A DNA stretch of 64,000 nucleotides from a virus (IMGVR_UViG_3300009788_000088); one strand, 5' to 3'; positions 6,808 through 64,000 are shown, counted from the first letter of the stretch. The notes: a model not told the origin generated them from the letters alone. Numbers and translations are program-made.

Positions 6808-7361
6808 GGAAAATACTATCAGATTATATCCACCTCTTAGCAAACCAAATTCCATATGGTTTCGACTCTACGAACTCTTCTTCCCAAACAGCAAACTCTA
6901 ACCAACGTCTTACACCATCAATGATTTTTGGGAACAAGAGATATTGTCCCACTGTACGGCGATCCCCATTTTTCGGCAATACTTTTTTCATCAGATAACA
7001 CCTTTCTTATGTGATTCCCTGATAAACGCTTTAGCGAAGTTCACACCCCAGAACGTTGCGAAGGGTTCAAACTTGTTACCCACTCTCCGAAAGATCGTCT
7101 TCCGGTTGTATTTGTCAGTGGTGATGACCGCCCTGAGTTTCTCGGCCTCATCGTAGAAGCCCCAGAAGGCACCGAATTTGATGTACCCAATACCCCATGA
7201 CCAACTCTTCTCCGGGCGTTTAATGACTAGGAATTTCATGAGGTCTCTGTTGTGCAGTTTTCACAGCCGGTACATTTAACAATCCACGGCCCGACAGCAT
7301 CGGAAGATATCTTATCCAAATCTATTTTCTTGTCTCCGTTACATTTTAAGTTTTTCATTAT

Positions 7362-35677: not shown

Positions 35678-35704
35678 GTAAAATACCTACATTTATTTTA
35701 GGTC

Positions 35705-35740
35705 AAAAAATGCCCCCGATAGGCCATTCCTATCGGGGGC
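35705..35740 (-). terminator. intrinsic terminator
   Basis: 12 bp stem GCCCCCGATAGG/CCTATCGGGGGC followed by T6 on minus strand. Confidence 0.85.
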
Positions 35741-46911: not shown

Positions 46912-47325
46912 TTAATTCTTAAGAGACTTGACCACTTCTGGGTCTGTTATGTGATAAGCCGGAACATGTTTCCAACCTTTATAATCAGCCATGGCTATTC
47001 TGTGCCAGCCATCAATGACCATACTTCCACCTAAATCTGGATCATCTACTAAAATGACCGGGGCGGAAAATTTTGTTTTTTCCGCTTTTTCGGGGTCCAC
47101 TCCTATACTCATCAAATTACCCATTTTATCCCCAGTCTTCTTCCAATCTTTAATCCGTATGGATAACCATTTCACCAAATCTTTCGTGGGTATGTTTGTT
47201 ATCTTAACCTTATCACGATTAGCACGAATCCAACGTTTGGCTTTATCAACATCATACCGAATCAACCCGAACTTAAAAGTTTCGTATTCAAGAAGAATTT
47301 CTCTGAATTCAGCAAATTTTACCAT
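46912..47325 (-). CDS. ParB/Srx-like domain protein with CTS-like tag
   Basis: PVILV...VIDGWHR..A; MVKFAEFREILLE. Confidence 0.65.
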   Translation of the reverse strand: MVKFAEFREILLEYETFKFGLIRYDVDKAKRWIRANRDKVKITNIPTKDLVKWLSIRIKDWKKTGDKMGNLMSIGVDPEKAEKTKFSAPVILVDDPDLGGSMVIDGWHRIAMADYKGWKHVPAYHITDPEVVKSLKN

Positions 47326-54715: not shown

Positions 54716-54743
54716 ATTATACCCATTTTTTTGTAAATGTCAA
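54716..54743 (-). promoter_or_regulatory. early promoter
   Basis: TTGACA-N16-TATAAT. Confidence 0.7.
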
Positions 54744-55628: not shown

Positions 55629-56175
55629 CGATCAATCCTTTCATCAATTCTTGAATGGCCAATGTTATCATATACGTGTCTGAAGAAATATTTATCTTCA
55701 CTAATTCAATAAGTGTGTGAACAGCGGCCTCTTTATCGTTGATAATATAATTAGTACACCCCCACACCCACCCCGGAATATCCTGTTTGTCGTACCCGTT
55801 GGCCCAGACCACAACCGGGAGTCCTATGGCCCTATGAAGGGTAATCTCCCCATGGGTGCCAGCACCCCTACGGACTCCCTCACAATATCGGACGAAAGAA
55901 CCGTGGCCGACACAAGTCATTATTATGTCCTTGTTTACGATTTCATAAATAGCGTCTTTATACTGAACAGAAGTCTTGTCGCCACTAGCGGCACTACACC
56001 GTTCTTCCAGTTCCTCCTGTCCTTTGGTGGGGTCTAATGTCTTGAAACCTTCGGCTTCAAATAACCCCGTAATATCATCCCACCAATCATGACCATCTTC
56101 GTTATGCTCAATGGACCCAGACAGATAAACACTCTTCGGAAAAATTTCATTCAAAATATCATCTTGTTCACTCAT
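55594..56175 (-). CDS. nucleoside 2-deoxyribosyltransferase-like protein
   Basis: VYLSGSI, LDP, D, GT.GE, PVVV. Confidence 0.7.
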   Translation of the reverse strand: MSEQDDILNEIFPKSVYLSGSIEHNEDGHDWWDDITGLFEAEGFKTLDPTKGQEELEERCSAASGDKTSVQYKDAIYEIVNKDIIMTCVGHGSFVRYCEGVRRGAGTHGEITLHRAIGLPVVVWANGYDKQDIPGWVWGCTNYIINDKEAAVHTLIELVKINISSDTYMITLAIQELMKGLIGETGQKNQKRN

Positions 56176-56177
56176 AA

Positions 56178-57188
56178 CTACCTCCCTAGTTTAATTCTCA
56201 CCACTGCTTCAACGCCCTTATAAGACCTGTAAGATGTTTTAAAATCTATATTCAGCCCCATTTGAATAGCCATATTGACATCTTTCGCCGGACAATCTGG
56301 GGGCCACACAAAAACCTTATATCCTAATTCAGCAAACTTGATTGATTTCTTTCGGCCGGTTTCATCGTTGTCGAAAACAAAACAAAAATTCCATGACTTG
56401 AGTGCCTTCTGATATTCAGCAGAAAAATCAGAACCGCACAATGCTATGGAATTAGATAAGAACATAGCATCAATGACACCTTCTGTCACATACACAACCT
56501 CAGTACCATCATGATTAACATTGAACATGTTCCAGATTTTGGGATGACCATCCAACACTTTGGTCAGATACTTTGGATACCCATCACCGTCTAACCTCCG
56601 AGCTTGGAATCCATAAATACGCTTCTCCGTCTTCCAAACAAAAGGAAGGATCATTCGTTGTTGGTAATCCCCTCTCTCAGCCATACAGAAGGAAACACCA
56701 TGATCTTTACACATCTCCATGGTGATAAGTCTATCGGTCAAATATACACGGACAGGGTGATCTTCTGGTAATTCCCAGACAGGTACGGTGCCTTTAGGTA
56801 ACTCAATCTCAAACTTCTTGACTTTTTCTTCAAACTCAATCTGCTCTTCTGGAATATGAACTTCAGGCGGCAATTGGGGACCATTCTTCTCTCGGTCCTC
56901 CAGCCACGCCGCTCCAATCTCTTGTTTGTATTGATGAAGCAAAGTGGGTTGTACTATTTCCATAAATTTCTCAAATGATATGCCCCTCTGATCACAATTG
57001 AAACATGAAAAAACTCTCATGTCCGGTTCAAACCAACCACGCTTCTTGTTGATATTACGCTTGGAATCCCCGCAAAGTGGACAACGGAAATTCCATTTTC
57101 CGGAGTGATGCCGCTTCAGTCCCTTGAGATTCATGTATCCGAGATACTTTTCCTGAATCTGCTTTACATCATATTCATACAGGCTCAA
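56178..57188 (-). CDS. 61: DNA primase (gp61-like)
   Basis: RCPLCGDS..CFNC, GFQAR, VTEGVIDAMFL, FDND, KDVN. Confidence 0.95.
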   Translation of the reverse strand: MSLYEYDVKQIQEKYLGYMNLKGLKRHHSGKWNFRCPLCGDSKRNINKKRGWFEPDMRVFSCFNCDQRGISFEKFMEIVQPTLLHQYKQEIGAAWLEDREKNGPQLPPEVHIPEEQIEFEEKVKKFEIELPKGTVPVWELPEDHPVRVYLTDRLITMEMCKDHGVSFCMAERGDYQQRMILPFVWKTEKRIYGFQARRLDGDGYPKYLTKVLDGHPKIWNMFNVNHDGTEVVYVTEGVIDAMFLSNSIALCGSDFSAEYQKALKSWNFCFVFDNDETGRKKSIKFAELGYKVFVWPPDCPAKDVNMAIQMGLNIDFKTSYRSYKGVEAVVRIKLGR

Positions 57189-57388
57189 ACGAACCTCCTT
57201 GGGGATTATGTCTTAATAATCTCCCCTATCTTTCGTGCGACTTTAAGTAGCACCCCGGAGATAAACGCTACGAATGCTGTGGCCGCACAAAAAATCATTG
57301 CGATGACTGACATCATTGTGAGAAATTCTAACATAATACGCCTCCTTGTGATAGGCTGTGAGATATTTCACAGCCTCCTTTTAAATTA

Positions 57389-57418
57389 TTTATATCACAG
57401 GTTGGCATTTTTTGTTAC
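57389..57418 (-). promoter_or_regulatory. class 2 promoter upstream of primase operon
   Basis: GTAACA-N18(..TGA)-TATAAA. Confidence 0.5.
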
Positions 57419-57433
57419 AACTTTTACGACTCT

Positions 57434-58612
57434 TTAATTCCATTCCATTTCCGCCATTGCCCTTAAAGTAAGTGCGGCCGTGTCCATGTCATCAATGACA
57501 GCTAATTTCTTCTGATTAGGATACATTATTGCTACAGGAATTTCAATACCCGTGTGATAGTATCCCAAAGATTCAGCATATGGGTCTTTCTCTTTGAAGG
57601 TAGCACTATTGATAGAGATACGCTTTTCATCATGCCTATGGAAGCTCTCTATGCTCCCTTCATGGAAATGTTCAAGAATACCAATGTCATAAGGCTCTTG
57701 TCCAAAATCATACATCCGCTTCCCGGCATTGTGCCTATTCAGTTTAGACATCCCCCAGAACTTATGACGGTGGTGAACCTTGTATCGAATTCCGTTGATG
57801 TCCAGTTTGACGATACCCCCGTCCTTGTAATACGGAAGATTCTTCCATGTGGCGAACTTTGCCATTTGGTCCACGAATGCATAGCGCTCTGTCCATGCCT
57901 CATGGTTACCACGAATCATCCACAGCACACGCCCTGCCAACATATCCAAAATATAAGCAACAAACTTGTATTGCATTTCAACCTTGAACTCACGTTGCTC
58001 CGTGGCAATGTTCAATTTCTGAATGATGAAGTTGTCGATAAGGTCTCCGCCAATAGCCACGAAAAGGTTGGGTGTGTCATTAATAAGTTCGACAACTTCT
58101 TTCAGATATTCATAATTAACTCCAGAACTCCCTAGATGAAGATCAGAAATTGCACAAAGCCCCACTGGATGAGTAGTCGTAATTTTGATAGGGGGTTTAT
58201 CTATATCAAAAATCCCCTCCTTCTTCTGCTTCGCAATGATTTCATTCAAAAGCTCTTCTGGACATTTTCCGGGGTCGTGTCCCTCTAATTTAATAGTGGT
58301 ATCCACGTTTAGGGGTTTCTTTTTATCCTTCCAATCTTTATCCACACTTTTCTTAGACCGTTGCTTCTTGGTTGATTTGTGTTTAGGATCGGGGCTACCC
58401 CCAGAAGCTTCATAACAAACATATCTTACAGTATTTTTACTGATTCGATAACCTTCACTTCTTAACTGAATAGCAATTTTATCATAAGACAATCCCTCAG
58501 TTCTAAGTTTCAATATTCTTTTGTGGAGTTGCTCCTTGCTAACCCGCTGTCCTTGATAAGATGGGTTACCATTTGTAACATTTCGTTTGTGAGGCTCTGG
58601 CGTTACAGTCAT
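57434..58612 (-). CDS. HTH-fused metallophosphoesterase
   Basis: GLSYDKIA..L....ISKNTV; SDLHLG, GGDLID, GNHE, HFH. Confidence 0.85.
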   Translation of the reverse strand: MTVTPEPHKRNVTNGNPSYQGQRVSKEQLHKRILKLRTEGLSYDKIAIQLRSEGYRISKNTVRYVCYEASGGSPDPKHKSTKKQRSKKSVDKDWKDKKKPLNVDTTIKLEGHDPGKCPEELLNEIIAKQKKEGIFDIDKPPIKITTTHPVGLCAISDLHLGSSGVNYEYLKEVVELINDTPNLFVAIGGDLIDNFIIQKLNIATEQREFKVEMQYKFVAYILDMLAGRVLWMIRGNHEAWTERYAFVDQMAKFATWKNLPYYKDGGIVKLDINGIRYKVHHRHKFWGMSKLNRHNAGKRMYDFGQEPYDIGILEHFHEGSIESFHRHDEKRISINSATFKEKDPYAESLGYYHTGIEIPVAIMYPNQKKLAVIDDMDTAALTLRAMAEMEWN

Positions 58613-58678
58613 GCACACCTCCTGTGTTTCATAAGGGACAGCCCCCTAATTTAGAGGGCTATGATATATACTCTCTTA

Positions 58679-58707
58679 AGTATATATGATTCAACAGGAA
58701 ATGTTAT
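58679..58707 (-). promoter_or_regulatory. class 2 promoter
   Basis: ATAACA-N17-TATACT. Confidence 0.5.
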
Positions 58708-58723
58708 TAAATAATTTTAAGCT

Positions 58724-58757
58724 GGGAGAGGGCCAAACAGAAGGCTAACCCTCTCCC
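58724..58757 (-). terminator. hairpin / possible terminator
   Basis: GGGAGAGGG...CCCTCTCCC stem; no clear U tract. Confidence 0.5.
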
Positions 58758-58772
58758 TGTTAGAGGCCGAAT

Positions 58773-59267
58773 TTACTGAAGTGTTTCGATAAGCATGTTA
58801 ATTTCAACAAGCGCACATCTGGCTTGATATCGAATTGGTTCACGTTCTGTTGTTGGATTAAGCTTTACTATCCGCTTCAATACGGGGCGCATTACAGCAA
58901 GCGCATCCATAAGGTTGGTGTGGGTTGATACCGTGAGACCCGCTGGAACTTTGATAGTCTTGGTCGGGCGTCCACGCTTCCGGGGTGGTTTCCTGAATTC
59001 TTTCGCACCTTTTTTGGTTACCTCATACACCCGGCGCTCAACCCGACGAATGAATTTGTTGGTAAGGAAGTTTTGAAAGATAAGTGTACGAGCACGGCCA
59101 AGATCAATGCCAGCCCTCATAAGGTCTTCGACGGTCACACCATCCAATATCAAAAAAACCAACTTGGCTTTACCAATGGCCGTCTTTTCGTGTACCAGTT
59201 CTTTATCCAACATCACCCAAAGCTCATCTACGTACTTTTGATATTCGGTGTCAGTCATATTAAACAC
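58773..59267 (-). CDS. putative DNA-binding protein (wHTH-like plus AT-hook)
   Basis: L..KFI.R...YEVTKKG; RKRGRP. Confidence 0.55.
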   Translation of the reverse strand: MFNMTDTEYQKYVDELWVMLDKELVHEKTAIGKAKLVFLILDGVTVEDLMRAGIDLGRARTLIFQNFLTNKFIRRVERRVYEVTKKGAKEFRKPPRKRGRPTKTIKVPAGLTVSTHTNLMDALAVMRPVLKRIVKLNPTTEREPIRYQARCALVEINMLIETLQ

Positions 59268-59281
59268 CTCCTTTGTATAGA

Positions 59282-59309
59282 AATATACCTCTTATTCAGA
59301 GAATGTCAA
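59282..59309 (-). promoter_or_regulatory. early promoter
   Basis: TTGACA-N16-TATATT. Confidence 0.7.
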
Positions 59310-59320
59310 GTAAAAACATG

Positions 59321-59356
59321 CAAAAAGGGAGCCTGTATGTACAGGCTCCCTTTTTG
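59321..59356. terminator. bidirectional intrinsic terminator
   Basis: Perfect 17 bp inverted repeat caaaaagggagcctgta/tacaggctccctttttg. Confidence 0.9.
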
Positions 59357-59474
59357 GTCTTTCATTTCTTTTTAGATTGTCTTATTTTTTTATATTAACA
59401 GGTTATTTTGTTTATCTCATATATAACCTCCTTTCACTTGACTCAAAATAAATTTGTTTCTCTCAACCACTTAC
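59321..59474 (-). ncRNA. candidate ~150 nt small RNA containing minigene ATG-AGA-TAA (59412-59420)
   Basis: Own promoter, AAAGGAGGT SD, two-codon ORF, A-rich tail, terminator. Confidence 0.55.
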
Positions 59475-59480
59475 AATTCA

Positions 59481-59508
59481 AGTATAATCATTTTTGAACT
59501 GTTGTCAA
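59481..59508 (-). promoter_or_regulatory. early promoter of the minigene unit
   Basis: TTGACA-N16-TATACT. Confidence 0.7.
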
Positions 59509-59517
59509 GTGAAAATT

Positions 59518-59841
59518 TTACACGGACACATAAACGGTTTTTACACCTTTGACGGCCGGGATGTGGGTGAAGAGTTTTCCGGGCACCACAAACATCTCCT
59601 TGCCTTTGATTTTCTTTGTGGGGCCAAGCCCCTCATAATCATCAAAAGCCGCCCAGTCGATCTGGTTGCCCAGATTCCCCAGCTTCTTGCCATCAGCATC
59701 ATGAACAATGGCATTCTTATTACCCTTATCCTCTTCAATGGTTTCTCTGGCCTCTTCCAATCGATTCATGGTTTCCTTCTCGGCCAATTCCTCTGCTTCG
59801 AAGCTTTCCAGCATAACCTCTTTTGGAGTTTTATTGCTCAT
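59518..59841 (-). CDS. late protein with acidic N-terminus rich in (L/I)xE sites
   Basis: AAGGAG RBS; MSNKTPKEVMLE..LAE..LEE..IEE. Confidence 0.6.
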   Translation of the reverse strand: MSNKTPKEVMLESFEAEELAEKETMNRLEEARETIEEDKGNKNAIVHDADGKKLGNLGNQIDWAAFDDYEGLGPTKKIKGKEMFVVPGKLFTHIPAVKGVKTVYVSV

Positions 59842-60361
59842 ATCGTATTTCTCCTTTATCCATCTTATTGATGTAATAATGTACAATCTTTTTAATTTTA
59901 TCAATAATGTCTTCAACATCCGTATTAAGTGCCAACGCCAGCCCCTGCACAACATCTAACGGATCAAGACCCCTTTTCATACTTCTCTGAAACACCTTCT
60001 CTAAAATTTTCTTTGTATAATTAATCAATGATGTCCGTTTTAAAGGAACGCCGTTGATAAATCCAACCACTGGATTATTATAATCCTTTTTACAAAATTG
60101 GGTTCCTTCTAGTGCTTTCCAAAAAGGTCTGGCAGTTTCAATATCGTAATAAGACATTAGATCATCTATCATATGATCAACTGTTTGCCACTCCCCTCCT
60201 GTAATCATTTCCACCATCATAATAGTCAACACGTTGGTTGGGGGTAGGTCAATTACCTCTCCCCCGTTTTCTATTTCCCGATAATCCCCTAATTCACACA
60301 GAAAATCTATACCCTGAACCAAGTGAACCATTTCTGATGATTGCATTCTCGCTCCCGCCAT
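59831..60361 (-). CDS. hypothetical late protein
   Basis: 176 aa ORF; likely start at 60346 after GGGAG. Confidence 0.65.
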   Translation of the reverse strand: MAGARMQSSEMVHLVQGIDFLCELGDYREIENGGEVIDLPPTNVLTIMMVEMITGGEWQTVDHMIDDLMSYYDIETARPFWKALEGTQFCKKDYNNPVVGFINGVPLKRTSLINYTKKILEKVFQRSMKRGLDPLDVVQGLALALNTDVEDIIDKIKKIVHYYINKMDKGEIRYEQ

Positions 60362-60364
60362 TTT

Positions 60365-60375
60365 AAGTATTTATA
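60365..60375 (-). promoter_or_regulatory. late promoter
   Basis: TATAAATACTT. Confidence 0.7.
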
Positions 60376-63207
60376 TCAATTATTTATCATATCCCAAATC
60401 GTGACAACTCTTTCCGTAGTCCATCCTATTGTATCAAGAATATCCTTTAATGGATTGATAAACGCTTTCTTCCACTGAAGACCATAATCCACTTGGATAA
60501 TATCCTTCCATTCATGTGGAAACTTCGTACTGATACCGATCACATTAGAACGTAAAACATTAGGCTCAATCATGTAGGCAAATTTAATTTTCTCTCCTTC
60601 AGCGATGAATGGATATTTATTTTCCAAACCATACTTCTTTACAGCTTGATTATAAACCATAGACGCTCGGACTTGAATAGGCAATCCTTTCAGTTCATCA
60701 TGCTCTTTGTCTGCCAACACTTTGACCATTTCTCCGTCCAGACCGGGAACGGTTATTATCTTAGTATCACGATATTTATCATACGTATTGACTCCTTTGG
60801 GGAATGCCACGGCCTCAAACGGTAACGTGAAAAACTCCTTCTTCTTTTCCCTGATAAAATCAATAAGTGTATCATTGTCTTCAAGGAATGCCATCCGCAG
60901 TGATTCCTTGAGCCAGTCCCGAATAACTTGTGGGCTATCTGACCGTACCACCTGAATTCCGGTCTGATCAATCTTGGGGTTCTTAGTGTAATCTTTACCC
61001 TCATCATCCAACACCATATAAGCATATTTCTTTTTAGCCAGCGCAATGACCCCACCACAAATTTTCTCTCGGCCCATAGACATGTAATTGACACTGGAGT
61101 TCAACTTTACAGCACAATCATGGAATGCCTTTTCAATGACAGGTAATAATACTTGTTCACTAAGTCTATTTAAGAATCGGACGATTTCTTCTTGTGAGCC
61201 CCCATCAGGGAACCGCTGAGTCACCACAGTCCCCAGACGGACGTACACGCTGTCTGTATCAATCATTTTGATATAAGGGTGTACCACGGGCACCCCCTCA
61301 GCAGTAAACGTCTCCAGAGGCCCAAATGCGAGTGTCAGGTACTCACTAATAGCCTTCTCCACTGATTTGATATAAAATTGGGATGTCAGTGTGATGGATG
61401 AAGCCAGCGCCACGTCATAATAGGGGAAGAACTTGTTAGCATAGGCTCCGTACAGGGAGTTCAGGAGAATCTTGAGAGCATACTGTATCTGGTCCTTAGC
61501 GGCTATTTCATCCTCCAAATAACGATATTCATCAATATGCCCCCCACCAGTCATCTCATCATCAAGTTGCTGTTCAAGTGTTCTCATCTCTTTTTGAGTG
61601 GTTTTTCTTTGTTCAAAGATATCCTTGACCACTTCGGGAATGAATCCAAGAGTTCCGCCGTCCCGGTAGTAAAATTGACCATACTCTCGGCCGCCAGCTT
61701 CTACAGTTTGATCCTCCTGCCACGCCACACATAGATTATAATCCGGGTACTCCTCAAGGATAGAGGTATCTACCAACCCGTTGACTAACCCATCCACGGT
61801 TACATTATCTGACAATGCCTGTAAAGCTTCCGGGAGTTCATTTTCGTTTATTTTCCGTTCCGGGGAAATGTTGTTGCTGATAAGACATGTTGGATATTCC
61901 GATGCCACGTCAAAGCTGATAACCCATTCATCCAACCCCTTGATAGGTTCCTTCACGAACGCTCCGGGGTAAGGAGTCCACCGCTTAGTCTCACGGGTTG
62001 GTGTGGCAATCTTCCGTTCGTTCAGAATATTATATAGATAAGCTTCCCAGATACGCAAGGTGCCCAACACCTGTTCAAAATCCCCCAGTCCGGCCATGTA
62101 AGAAATGGTGGCTCCCAGTTGGATAAGCTGAAGTTTGTCATCCAACATCTTAACAAGATCGGCGTCATAAATGTTGTACTCAACGAACAATTGAAAATTC
62201 TGACGGTAAAGGGTGGCAAGGTCACCATACTTATCCCGGTAGTCAACTTTCTCTTTACCCAATTCGTACTTGGAAATGTAATCTAATGTAAAACTCTCCC
62301 GGCCCCCCGGTTGGAACTTCCTATACAATTCAATATAATCAAGGTGAGCCACGCCAGTAATAGTGTAACCTTCAACATCTTGATGCCTCAATCCTGAATC
62401 AGCAATAACCCGTTTTTCTCGGATAGTTCTGAAGGGAGATAGTTTGTACATTATTTTCTCTTCAATTTGACCGTACTTCGCCAGATATTTGATACGATTG
62501 ATGAAGTATGGGATATCAAACCCGAATGAGAACCACCCTGTTAAGACATCCGGATAGTCCTTACCACCTTCCCCAGAAAACACGTCGATGAATGATTTAA
62601 TAAGGAACGCTTCGTTCAGTTTTCCATCCGGCCCAGAACAGTTGAAGTACCGCACGTTGGGCTCATGTGGAACATAATCCGACTGACCATCTGGAGGTGC
62701 TGAGAAAACATACTTTTTATCTCTAGCAACATCGTAATAGGTCAAGGCTACGATAGGTTGGAAGGGGTTGTCGGGTTTCGCAAATCCACCCATGGTATCA
62801 ACCTCAATATCTAATACCCCCACTCGGATAAAAGGACATGTGAATGAACGCTCACTCCTTGGGAACACCTCAGCAATAAGCTGGGTAGGGATAGCAATAT
62901 CGTGGAGGGGTGACAACTTGTTGGGATTATGGATATCCCCATAAGGAGCCGCTTCATAATATTCGTTAATGGAATTGAATTCCTGAAGGTATACGGGAGT
63001 GCCGTTCAAAGACTTCCACTCAGACTCTCCGTGGAAAGCCCACCCTAATCGGGGTTTGAAATCTTCGGGGATTTTGTATTCTTTGTAACGCCGTTCACCG
63101 TTCTTAGTGTAATAAGAAACGATGAGTGAGCTTCTGCGGTTTCCTCTAAAAGACGAAGAAATATAAGTTCCGTCGATCTTCTCTACCACAAACCTATCCT
63201 TTCTCAT
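60376..63207 (-). CDS. 43: family B DNA polymerase (gp43-like)
   Basis: LDIEV, FDIPY, YNIYD, YPGAFVKEP, SFDVASEYP, KILLNSLYG, DTDS, KKKY. Confidence 0.97.
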   Translation of the reverse strand: MRKDRFVVEKIDGTYISSSFRGNRRSSLIVSYYTKNGERRYKEYKIPEDFKPRLGWAFHGESEWKSLNGTPVYLQEFNSINEYYEAAPYGDIHNPNKLSPLHDIAIPTQLIAEVFPRSERSFTCPFIRVGVLDIEVDTMGGFAKPDNPFQPIVALTYYDVARDKKYVFSAPPDGQSDYVPHEPNVRYFNCSGPDGKLNEAFLIKSFIDVFSGEGGKDYPDVLTGWFSFGFDIPYFINRIKYLAKYGQIEEKIMYKLSPFRTIREKRVIADSGLRHQDVEGYTITGVAHLDYIELYRKFQPGGRESFTLDYISKYELGKEKVDYRDKYGDLATLYRQNFQLFVEYNIYDADLVKMLDDKLQLIQLGATISYMAGLGDFEQVLGTLRIWEAYLYNILNERKIATPTRETKRWTPYPGAFVKEPIKGLDEWVISFDVASEYPTCLISNNISPERKINENELPEALQALSDNVTVDGLVNGLVDTSILEEYPDYNLCVAWQEDQTVEAGGREYGQFYYRDGGTLGFIPEVVKDIFEQRKTTQKEMRTLEQQLDDEMTGGGHIDEYRYLEDEIAAKDQIQYALKILLNSLYGAYANKFFPYYDVALASSITLTSQFYIKSVEKAISEYLTLAFGPLETFTAEGVPVVHPYIKMIDTDSVYVRLGTVVTQRFPDGGSQEEIVRFLNRLSEQVLLPVIEKAFHDCAVKLNSSVNYMSMGREKICGGVIALAKKKYAYMVLDDEGKDYTKNPKIDQTGIQVVRSDSPQVIRDWLKESLRMAFLEDNDTLIDFIREKKKEFFTLPFEAVAFPKGVNTYDKYRDTKIITVPGLDGEMVKVLADKEHDELKGLPIQVRASMVYNQAVKKYGLENKYPFIAEGEKIKFAYMIEPNVLRSNVIGISTKFPHEWKDIIQVDYGLQWKKAFINPLKDILDTIGWTTERVVTIWDMINN

Positions 63208-63249
63208 TTGAAGCGTATTTGAATAATGTACCAGAACGTTGGAGTAATG

Positions 63250-63633
63250 TCAATCCCAGATCGCAAGTATCCAAAAGCCCAGCAATCTGAGGGCTTCATC
63301 AATCTGTTCATACTCTTCCACGTTCAGGCCATAACGGGGTTGGCCAAACTCATCTGGAGGAAGGGTTCCATCCCTGTCCGCCGCCAGCAATTCAATGGCC
63401 GCAATGAGTTTATCAACGTATGCTTCCCATTGATTAGAGGTAAGAGGCATTGGATGGCCCATTAAATTTTTACGATACGCCTTGAGCCGAGGAAGCATCC
63501 AGTACAAAGTGGAATACCCCAAGTCCCAAACCTCATCATCAGAATAACCCCGAAATTTTCTTTGGAGTCGTATCTTGATATTGAATTTAAAATCTCTAAT
63601 CCGTGACCGCATTCTTCGAAAAAAGCGTTTCAT
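63250..63633 (-). CDS. hypothetical phage protein
   Basis: RGYSD.EVWDL...LPRL..Y...WD. Confidence 0.65.
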   Translation of the reverse strand: MKRFFRRMRSRIRDFKFNIKIRLQRKFRGYSDDEVWDLGYSTLYWMLPRLKAYRKNLMGHPMPLTSNQWEAYVDKLIAAIELLAADRDGTLPPDEFGQPRYGLNVEEYEQIDEALRLLGFWILAIWD

Positions 63634-63883
63634 GAAATGTGTCTCCCATTGTCATTAAAAGGTCTTGGTCAATTCGTTCACCAAATTCCGTTGTTAGAAT
63701 TTTTCTCAAATGAAATTCCATATCTATACTATCAATTCCGTAATGCCAATCACTGATAAAAACGAATGGTCCCGAATTTGGTTTCGGGAGCATAGCCAAC
63801 AATTTGGTAGGACTGACAGCCATTAACGCAAAACCAGCGCCCAAAGTCTTTAGAAAGCTACGTCTTTCTATTTTTAATGTCAC
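63596..63883 (-). CDS. small protein with twin-arginine signal peptide
   Basis: ERRSFLK + hydrophobic stretch; AGGAG RBS, GTG start. Confidence 0.65.
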   Translation of the reverse strand: MTLKIERRSFLKTLGAGFALMAVSPTKLLAMLPKPNSGPFVFISDWHYGIDSIDMEFHLRKILTTEFGERIDQDLLMTMGDTFHETLFSKNAVTD

Positions 63884-64000
63884 GGTAACACTCCTGTATA
63901 GTCATTGAAACGTGGCAACTTTTACAACCACATTCCCCAGCACAAGCGTAACTACAATCATCATTACAGGTACACTCAAAACAACAGCACATCGTTGTAT

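Follow-up and report, generated by a model that had tools for sequence, protein, structure and literature searches.

The 64,000-nucleotide stretch of viral DNA analysed here (hereafter the window) raises the question of why a phage would place a promoter, a strong ribosome-binding site and a terminator around a reading frame of only two codons. The unit lies on the minus strand at 59310-59508, as do the features described below unless otherwise stated. The window is contained in an 83,100-base virus record, G000, which is an IMG/VR contig with a CheckV completeness of 36%. Window and record differ at seven single bases in 64 kb (5882, 37631, 38722, 47313, 47322, 50150 and 61153), so this phage must exist in two or more near-identical assemblies or variants. 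All seven differences fall outside the unit, and the comparison is uninformative about its conservation.

Architecture and rarity of the two-codon unit

The unit opens with promoter P1 (59481-59508), in which TTGACA (59508-59503) and TATACT (59486-59481) flank a 16-nt spacer. P1 matches at 11 of 12 positions and is the joint best promoter match across 56000-64000. From a predicted transcript start at about 59474, an AT-rich leader of 39 nt (59436-59474) without a significant fold leads to the Shine-Dalgarno (SD) sequence GAAAGGAGGT (59426-59435). This SD matches the anti-SD over 10 nt and begins 40 nt from the predicted start, so that strong complementarity lies in the 5' part of the transcript. 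The SD/anti-SD duplex has a calculated energy of -16.8 kcal/mol with a generic 16S 3' end. The SD ranks in the top class of the genome, and the 5-nt spacer TATAT gives an ideal gap to the AUG. The minigene itself, ATG AGA TAA (Met-Arg-stop), occupies 59412-59420 and completes the layout of a bar-type minigene, in which an SD-like site precedes an AUG, a lone sense codon and a stop.

A second in-frame TAA follows at 59405-59403, and a weak hairpin (AGGTTAT / ATAACCT, 59400-59429, -5.1 kcal/mol, 16-nt loop) spans the frame. The 55-nt tail (59357-59411) is composed of 34 A, 10 T, 6 C and 5 G (62% A) and contains six TAA triplets at spacings of 5-10 nt, with stop codons in all three frames. The unit ends in an intrinsic terminator (59310-59356), bidirectional in form, whose hairpin (59356-59321) has a perfect 16-17-bp stem of -27.4 kcal/mol and is followed by the T-run TTTTTGCATGTTTTT. 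The first-pass annotation had listed a promoter, leader, SD, mini-ORF, A-rich tail and terminator at these places, and our reading of the sequence bears them out to the base. It had further argued that the frame is not the product of a single nonsense mutation in a lost gene. That argument is upheld for a recent mutation, which is made unlikely by stops in every frame of a tail that is 62% A.

Several other readings of the locus were discarded. Frameshifting cannot open a longer frame, since each of the three frames contains stops. An alternative genetic code is at odds with TAA being the main stop (64 of 129). Classical attenuation does not fit a stop 56 nt ahead of the terminator with no antiterminator pairing seen. 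Open reading frames on the plus strand (41, 32 and 100 aa, with TTG starts) lack an SD and were rejected as genes.

The elements of the unit exceed chance by far. On the main strand of G000, promoters matching at 11 or more of 12 positions number 16, against a mean of 1 in dinucleotide shuffles, and an SD of at least 9 nt followed by ATG occurs at 11 sites, against a mean of 0.9. We scanned all of G000 for ATGs preceded by an SD match of at least 6 nt and followed by no more than six codons. The longest SD among these short frames (10 nt) is that of the minigene; the few other short frames with long SDs begin at ATGs that lie next to a true gene start and out of frame with it, and at all remaining sites the SD is weaker. 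The unit is the sole stand-alone mini-ORF with a strong SD in the 83-kb record, and no second copy of it is present in G000. Strong intrinsic terminators are likewise scarce on this strand of G000 (just 3-5), and the hairpin of the unit is the second most stable. The strongest, at 35683-35740 of the window (G000 47145-47240), reads GCCCCCGATAGG ... CCTATCGGGGGC plus a T-run and has an early-family promoter directly after it, with no promoter or mini-ORF before.

Genomic setting and the early promoter family

In the order of the transcribed strand, the unit is preceded by polB (60376-63207), a 176-aa gene (59831-60361) and a 107-aa gene (59518-59841) that is the last of the polB operon and is coupled by ATGAGCAATAA. 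It is followed by promoter P2 (59282-59309; TTGACA-16-TATATT, 11 of 12), which comes directly after the terminator and drives a 161-aa gene (58773-59258) with its own SD, AAAGGAGGTG, at 59274-59265. The polB product is a family-B polymerase that matches PHROG 262 and is about 33% identical to polymerases of T4-like cyanophages. Further downstream lie genes for a metallophosphoesterase-type exonuclease (a gp47-like nuclease) and then a primase. Together, the polB match and the exonuclease and primase genes identify the surroundings as a replication module belonging to an uncultured T4-like phage. For the neighbouring proteins, Pfam, PHROG and PDB sequences provided no annotation, and RegA was not matched. 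The 161-aa early protein carries an invariant AIGKAKLVFLILDGVTVEDL block and an AT-hook-like KRGRP motif. Outside the window, G000 encodes 24 tRNA genes and a tmRNA, including a tRNA-Arg(UCU) at G000 7034-7109.

The stop codon of the 107-aa gene at 59518 lies 10 nt ahead of the P1 -35 hexamer, with no terminator between them. Read-through transcripts of the polB operon would therefore also cross the unit and end at the shared terminator, and the unit, judged from its sequence, doubles as the 3' untranslated end of that operon. The earlier description of a stand-alone transcription unit consequently holds for RNA started at P1 and fails for polB operon RNA.

Relatives of this phage are few. We compared the unit, the 161-aa gene, polB and P0006 with GenBank phages, IMG/VR and GTDB genomes, where the closest relative was a 31% identical polB on a contig of 28% GC (L003), which was uninformative. 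A metagenome scan with back-translated LILDGVTVED yielded nothing beyond a chance hit on an unrelated contig of high GC (L004). A set of 5.8 billion clustered proteins contains a single relative of the 161-aa protein (P0002, 68% identical) and a single close one of polB (P0005, 88% identical). Both are attributed to a Logan contig 22,942 nt long, presumably one and the same, and P0003 is a further near-identical copy on a 1,019-nt ENA contig.

P1 belongs to a promoter family that recurs in this genome. Across G000 we identified some 14 near-identical promoters whose conserved flanks, ATTTTnCTTGACAt and AAAtnGGTTATATT, stand about 11 nt apart, and most of which lead directly into GGAGGTA and a small gene; examples in the window are found at 54743, 41430, 35677, 33190, 28228, 15139, 14318, 12650, 7403, 6807 and 5179. 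The flanks of P1, ATTTTCACTTGACA ... AAAATGATTATACT, fit this early family. P1 departs from the family consensus at several non-core positions and lacks GGAGGTA right after the -10, and this divergence marks it as a diverged member and no fresh copy. In most members GGAGGTA lies about 6 nt past the -10, at the 5' end of the transcript, even where the gene has a separate SD; it may be a built-in 5' stabiliser of early transcripts.

The RNA body and the AGA codon

Does the RNA itself suggest a function? The 118-nt body without the terminator folds no better than its shuffles (z -0.08). The pairing of AGGUUAU with AUAACCU, which covers the 3' half of the SD and leaves the mini-ORF in the loop, is the only recurrent one and is not significant against shuffles. 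No Rfam family reached its gathering threshold, the best matches being sub-threshold and driven by the terminator. Comparison of the transcribed part with the other early cassettes yielded no paralogue (short matches only, z below 2.7), and complementarity to potential antisense targets within the phage extends to 11 nt at most, the number expected by chance. Composition is more distinctive: leader and tail together form the 100-nt window of G000 with the lowest GC content (21%, against 43.8 +/- 6.2%) and the highest A content (54%), and purines make up 69-73% of the RNA strand. Other intergenic windows that hold a promoter come down to 24-25% GC, which makes the low-GC extreme of the unit real but modest.

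Nested inverted repeats enclose P1 (59432-59514). The outer repeat is a perfect 11-12 bp (TTTCACTTGAC, 59514-59504, with GTCAAGTGAAA, 59442-59432), and the inner one of 9 bp (ACAGTTCAA with TTGAATTGT) lies on either side of the P1 -10. The two arms occur together solely in transcripts that read through from the polB operon, whereas P1-started RNA is without the 5' arms. The predicted read-through fold has an energy of -21.3 kcal/mol and a z of -2.76, with 1 of 200 shuffles as good, although this z is optimistic because the segment was picked after the repeat had been noticed. This fold pairs GAAA(G) at the 5' edge of the SD, whereas P1-started RNA would leave the SD freer. On this model, the repeats could serve to give the two transcripts unequal access to ribosomes; alternatively, they could be a palindrome that acts at the DNA level. 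They could also be due to chance, estimated at about 0.2-0.3 for the outer repeat taken by itself in this 1.8-kb region.

The single sense codon of the minigene is an ordinary one for this phage. The first-pass annotation had invoked the potency of rare codons such as AGA. In the long ORFs of the phage, AGA is the commonest arginine codon (284 uses, 12.8 per 1000, followed by CGG at 12.7 and CGT at 10.5), and it is the second codon of 6 of 129 phage genes, where it ranks joint second. The phage also has its own tRNA-Arg(UCU).

We then looked at comparable frames elsewhere. The pattern AAAGGAGGT-N3-7-ATGAGATAA has 10 exact matches in IMG/VR, which by a rough estimate is about the number expected by chance. 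Three of these lie within genes or at true starts, and in about six the match is non-coding and has a hairpin behind it (L005, L008, which is the same as L010, L009, L012 and L014). When the codon was left open, AGA occurred 5 times among the matches listed (at least 113 IMG/VR frames), against 3.5 expected from base composition (p 0.27). AGA is thus not enriched and is no preferred codon of such frames. Taken together, a common AGA, a phage-encoded tRNA-Arg(UCU), the presence of a single AGA and this lack of enrichment in IMG/VR weaken the rare-codon argument without refuting it.

The closest look-alike of the unit, at 1317-1470 of L009, comes from an unrelated IMG/VR contig of 30% GC. It consists of TTGATA-17-TATATT with an extended TG, AAAGGAGGTG and ATG AGA TAA, followed by an A-rich stretch and a GC-rich hairpin. 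A tRNA-like sequence follows the hairpin at the end of that locus, where ARAGORN called no tRNA. Two further motifs with such frames recur in phages, although they were selected by the search pattern itself and may not be conserved. In five loci (L041, L048, L063, L082 and L095) a terminator is followed by AAAGGAGGTGATAATGATGTAA, a promoter-like TATAAT region and a gene, with a two-codon frame; in three others (L081, L085 and L099) TGTATAAT ... AAAGGAGGTGAnnnCATGAAATAA comes with a two-codon frame about 60 nt ahead of a second SD.

Candidate functions and known systems

We tentatively favour the reading that the unit encodes a functional, non-coding, A-rich early small RNA of about 160 nt that engages ribosomes, a possibility that we hold with less than even confidence. 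Under this proposal, host RNA polymerase would fire P1 early in infection, a 30S subunit would bind the 10-nt SD and a 70S ribosome would form at the AUG. AGA would be read by tRNA-Arg(UCU), either the host's or the phage's own, and UAA would be met at once, leaving the ribosome parked or cycling at this 5'-proximal site. Its occupancy would block 5'-to-3' decay in the manner of known SD-type 5' stabilisers while the terminator hairpin would block decay from the 3' end, and the outcome would be a long-lived small RNA with an exposed A-rich stretch. The payload could be the consumption of ribosomes, initiator or tRNA, or it could be the A-rich tail as a binding site. The sequence elements, the place of P1 in its promoter family, the uniqueness of the unit in G000 and the lack of a fold or of targets are observed; that the unit is transcribed, that its RNA loads ribosomes and is stable, and that it affects the cell are inferred. 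The second idea of the first-pass annotation, an SD-protected small RNA with an A-rich tail, is compatible with everything seen here.

Several observations argue for such an RNA. The 11-of-12 promoter core and the family flanks are undecayed in an otherwise diverged cassette, the SD is of the top class with ideal spacing to the AUG, the frame is unique in 83 kb, and the unstructured body suits initiation. The 5' part of the SD can be paired in read-through RNA and not in P1-started RNA, and the phage has a habit of placing SD elements (GGAGGTA) at the 5' ends of early transcripts. The unit is, on the other side, a single copy with no Rfam match, no significant fold and no antisense target within the phage beyond chance; AGA is a common second codon; the polB operon needs the terminator regardless; and a decapitated early gene cassette would leave every one of these elements too.

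That last point describes the relic that we regard as a serious if somewhat unlikely alternative. The head of a lost early micro-gene (promoter, leader, ribosome-binding site, ATG and AGA) would have become fused to the 3' end of the polB operon, its body removed by deletion or by recombination between portable early promoter cassettes, leaving a minigene without selected function. About 14 similar cassettes do lead directly into small genes, AGA is among the commonest second codons, the upstream operon accounts for the terminator, no fold, target within the phage or paralogue was detected, and among the matches listed in IMG/VR, two-codon frames behind the SD of the minigene occur at about chance frequency with no preference for AGA. 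Against a relic, the promoter hexamers, SD and AUG are all undecayed despite cassette divergence elsewhere. The stops in all frames and the non-coding composition of the tail speak against a recent point mutation, and the transcribed part retains no residual similarity to the gene of any other cassette. The A-rich composition would also fit an origin of the T4 oriF/oriG type, in which a purine-rich transcript annealed as an R-loop would prime leading-strand synthesis and the SD and ATG would be incidental. T4 minimal origins are about 100 bp long and consist of a promoter and an AT-rich unwinding element, R-loop formation being sequence-independent, and T4 oriE depends on an early promoter (PMC3016281). 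The unit, in a T4-like phage, has a promoter and an A+T-rich element within about 100 bp, as this definition has it (PMC3016281); the 100 nt after P1 are the lowest-GC, highest-A window of G000, with a 69-73% purine RNA; and the segment is non-coding and lies between polB and the gp47-like nuclease and primase genes. An origin has no need, however, of a perfect 10-nt SD with an optimally spaced AUG, and the RNA would be set free by the very strong terminator that comes next. In AT content, other intergenic windows with a promoter nearly equal that of the unit (24-25% GC), and GC skew shows no inflection at the unit, although T4 oriA and oriC likewise lack one. On balance, we consider an origin improbable.

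The remaining alternatives give the translated frame itself a role. In a bar- or CreT-like sink for tRNA-Arg(UCU) or peptidyl-tRNA hydrolase (Pth), essentially the main idea of the first-pass annotation, fMet-Arg-tRNA made and dropped over and over on an abundant early RNA would starve AGA translation or overload Pth and so shut off the host. In its favour, SD, AUG, AGA, UAA and a downstream stem-loop are combined on a strong promoter of their own. AGA minigenes inhibit E. coli systems most when they are shortest (PMC2490762), CreT of Haloarcula hispanica works with an SD, an AUG and AGA codons (PMC8501985), and the tRNA-Arg(UCU) that the phage brings along could compensate. Against this, AGA is the most-used arginine codon of the phage, so that sequestration would hit phage translation too. 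There is one AGA here where CreT needs two, and AGA is not enriched in comparable IMG/VR frames among the matches listed. In E. coli, AGAAGA minigenes cause peptidyl-tRNA-Arg to accumulate in Pth-defective cells and not at all in pth+ cells (PMC2490762), and neither a Pth gene nor an obvious partner was found in the 83-kb record (36% of the genome). We find this sink very unlikely. The same low credence goes to its boldest form, in which the strongly promoted two-codon AGA minigene RNA would be an offensive translation weapon or timer that loads ribosomes and, early in infection, ties up tRNA-Arg(UCU), Pth or initiation capacity, a CreT counterpart to which the phage tRNA-Arg(UCU), one of a near-complete tRNA set, would be the antidote. 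Equally remote, in our estimate, is a leader for the downstream operon, whereby transcripts from P1 or from the polB operon would pass the terminator by leakage or antitermination, and their SD and mini-ORF would stabilise the 5' end of the message of the 161-aa, gp47-like nuclease and primase genes or couple to it. P1, terminator, P2 and gene are indeed arranged in series, three other phage contigs (L081, L085 and L099) have two-codon frames behind strong SDs before a second SD and a gene, and stabilisers that bind ribosomes at the 5' end are well established in Bacillus (PMC3997798, PMC5737220). The near-ideal terminator (-27.4 kcal/mol plus T-run) argues against passage, as does the absence of any alternative antiterminator pairing on reading the sequence, and P2 already supplies a strong promoter to a 161-aa gene that has its own SD.

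These readings differ in what they would mean. An R-loop origin would locate a start of replication in a T4-like lineage not yet in culture, whereas a relic would be ordinary and would record the turnover of portable early promoter and ribosome-binding-site cassettes. A functional ribosome-engaging RNA would give simple experimental access to the ways in which such phages remodel translation in their hosts.

Comparison with characterized systems places the unit among several precedents. The lambda bar minigenes (barI and barII) use AUA. Like the unit, lambda bar is phage-borne and has an SD-like site, an AUG, a single sense codon and an immediate stop in A/U-rich surroundings; among bar minigenes and engineered E. 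coli minigenes of two to eight codons (PMC2490762), the shortest frames are the most potent and AGA is a classic hungry codon. Transcription of such minigenes is toxic to Pth-defective cells, in which peptidyl-tRNA builds up, and extra Pth or cognate tRNA relieves it. In lambda, however, the bar frames lie hidden within other transcripts and take effect only where the host's Pth is defective, whereas the unit, with AGA as its codon, is supplied with a consensus promoter and a terminator, and AGA is not rare in the phage.

Also similar in form is CreT, a small RNA that combines a strong SD, an efficient AUG, AGA right after the start and a stop, and that acts through being translated and not via its product. 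For CreT to work, initiation must be efficient and backed by a strong SD, two AGA codons must follow in a row, and a stable stem-loop must lie downstream; AGA is rare in its host (PMC8501985). Both AGA codons are needed there, and the unit has one. Cascade represses CreT via the adjacent CreA, which has CRISPR-like repeats; near the unit, 58600-60400 contains only short chance-level repeats and the promoter-family repeat, with nothing CreA-like. The stable stem-loop of the unit lies 56 nt downstream of the mini-ORF and is the terminator, and the context is a lytic T4-like phage.

The protective role proposed for the SD has precedents of its own. The polypurine stabiliser of phage SP82 is an SD-type 5' stabiliser of phage early RNA. 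In Bacillus, an SD-bound ribosome near the 5' end blocks 5'-to-3' decay and so stabilises RNA in the cryIIIA STAB-SD, hbs and ermC leaders (PMC3997798, PMC5737220). As in the unit, a very strong SD lies near the 5' end and translation of a real protein is not required. These leaders protect a downstream coding message, whereas the frame of the unit has no more behind it than a 55-nt A-rich tail and the terminator. At the DNA level, T4 oriF (in uvsY) and oriG (in 34) resemble the unit in having a promoter directly before an A+T-rich stretch of about 100 bp amid replication and recombination genes (PMC3016281). They differ in relying on MotA-dependent middle promoters (oriE on an early one) and in having no terminator or ribosome-binding site.

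To our knowledge, no lytic T4-like phage with a full tRNA set has been described in which a two-codon AGA frame is given a consensus promoter and a terminator to itself. If functional, the unit would make this the first lytic phage known to us with a dedicated promoter and terminator for a two-codon minigene, and it would link the peptidyl-tRNA biology of lambda bar, translated RNA toxins of the CreT type and the unexplained large tRNA sets of big phages.
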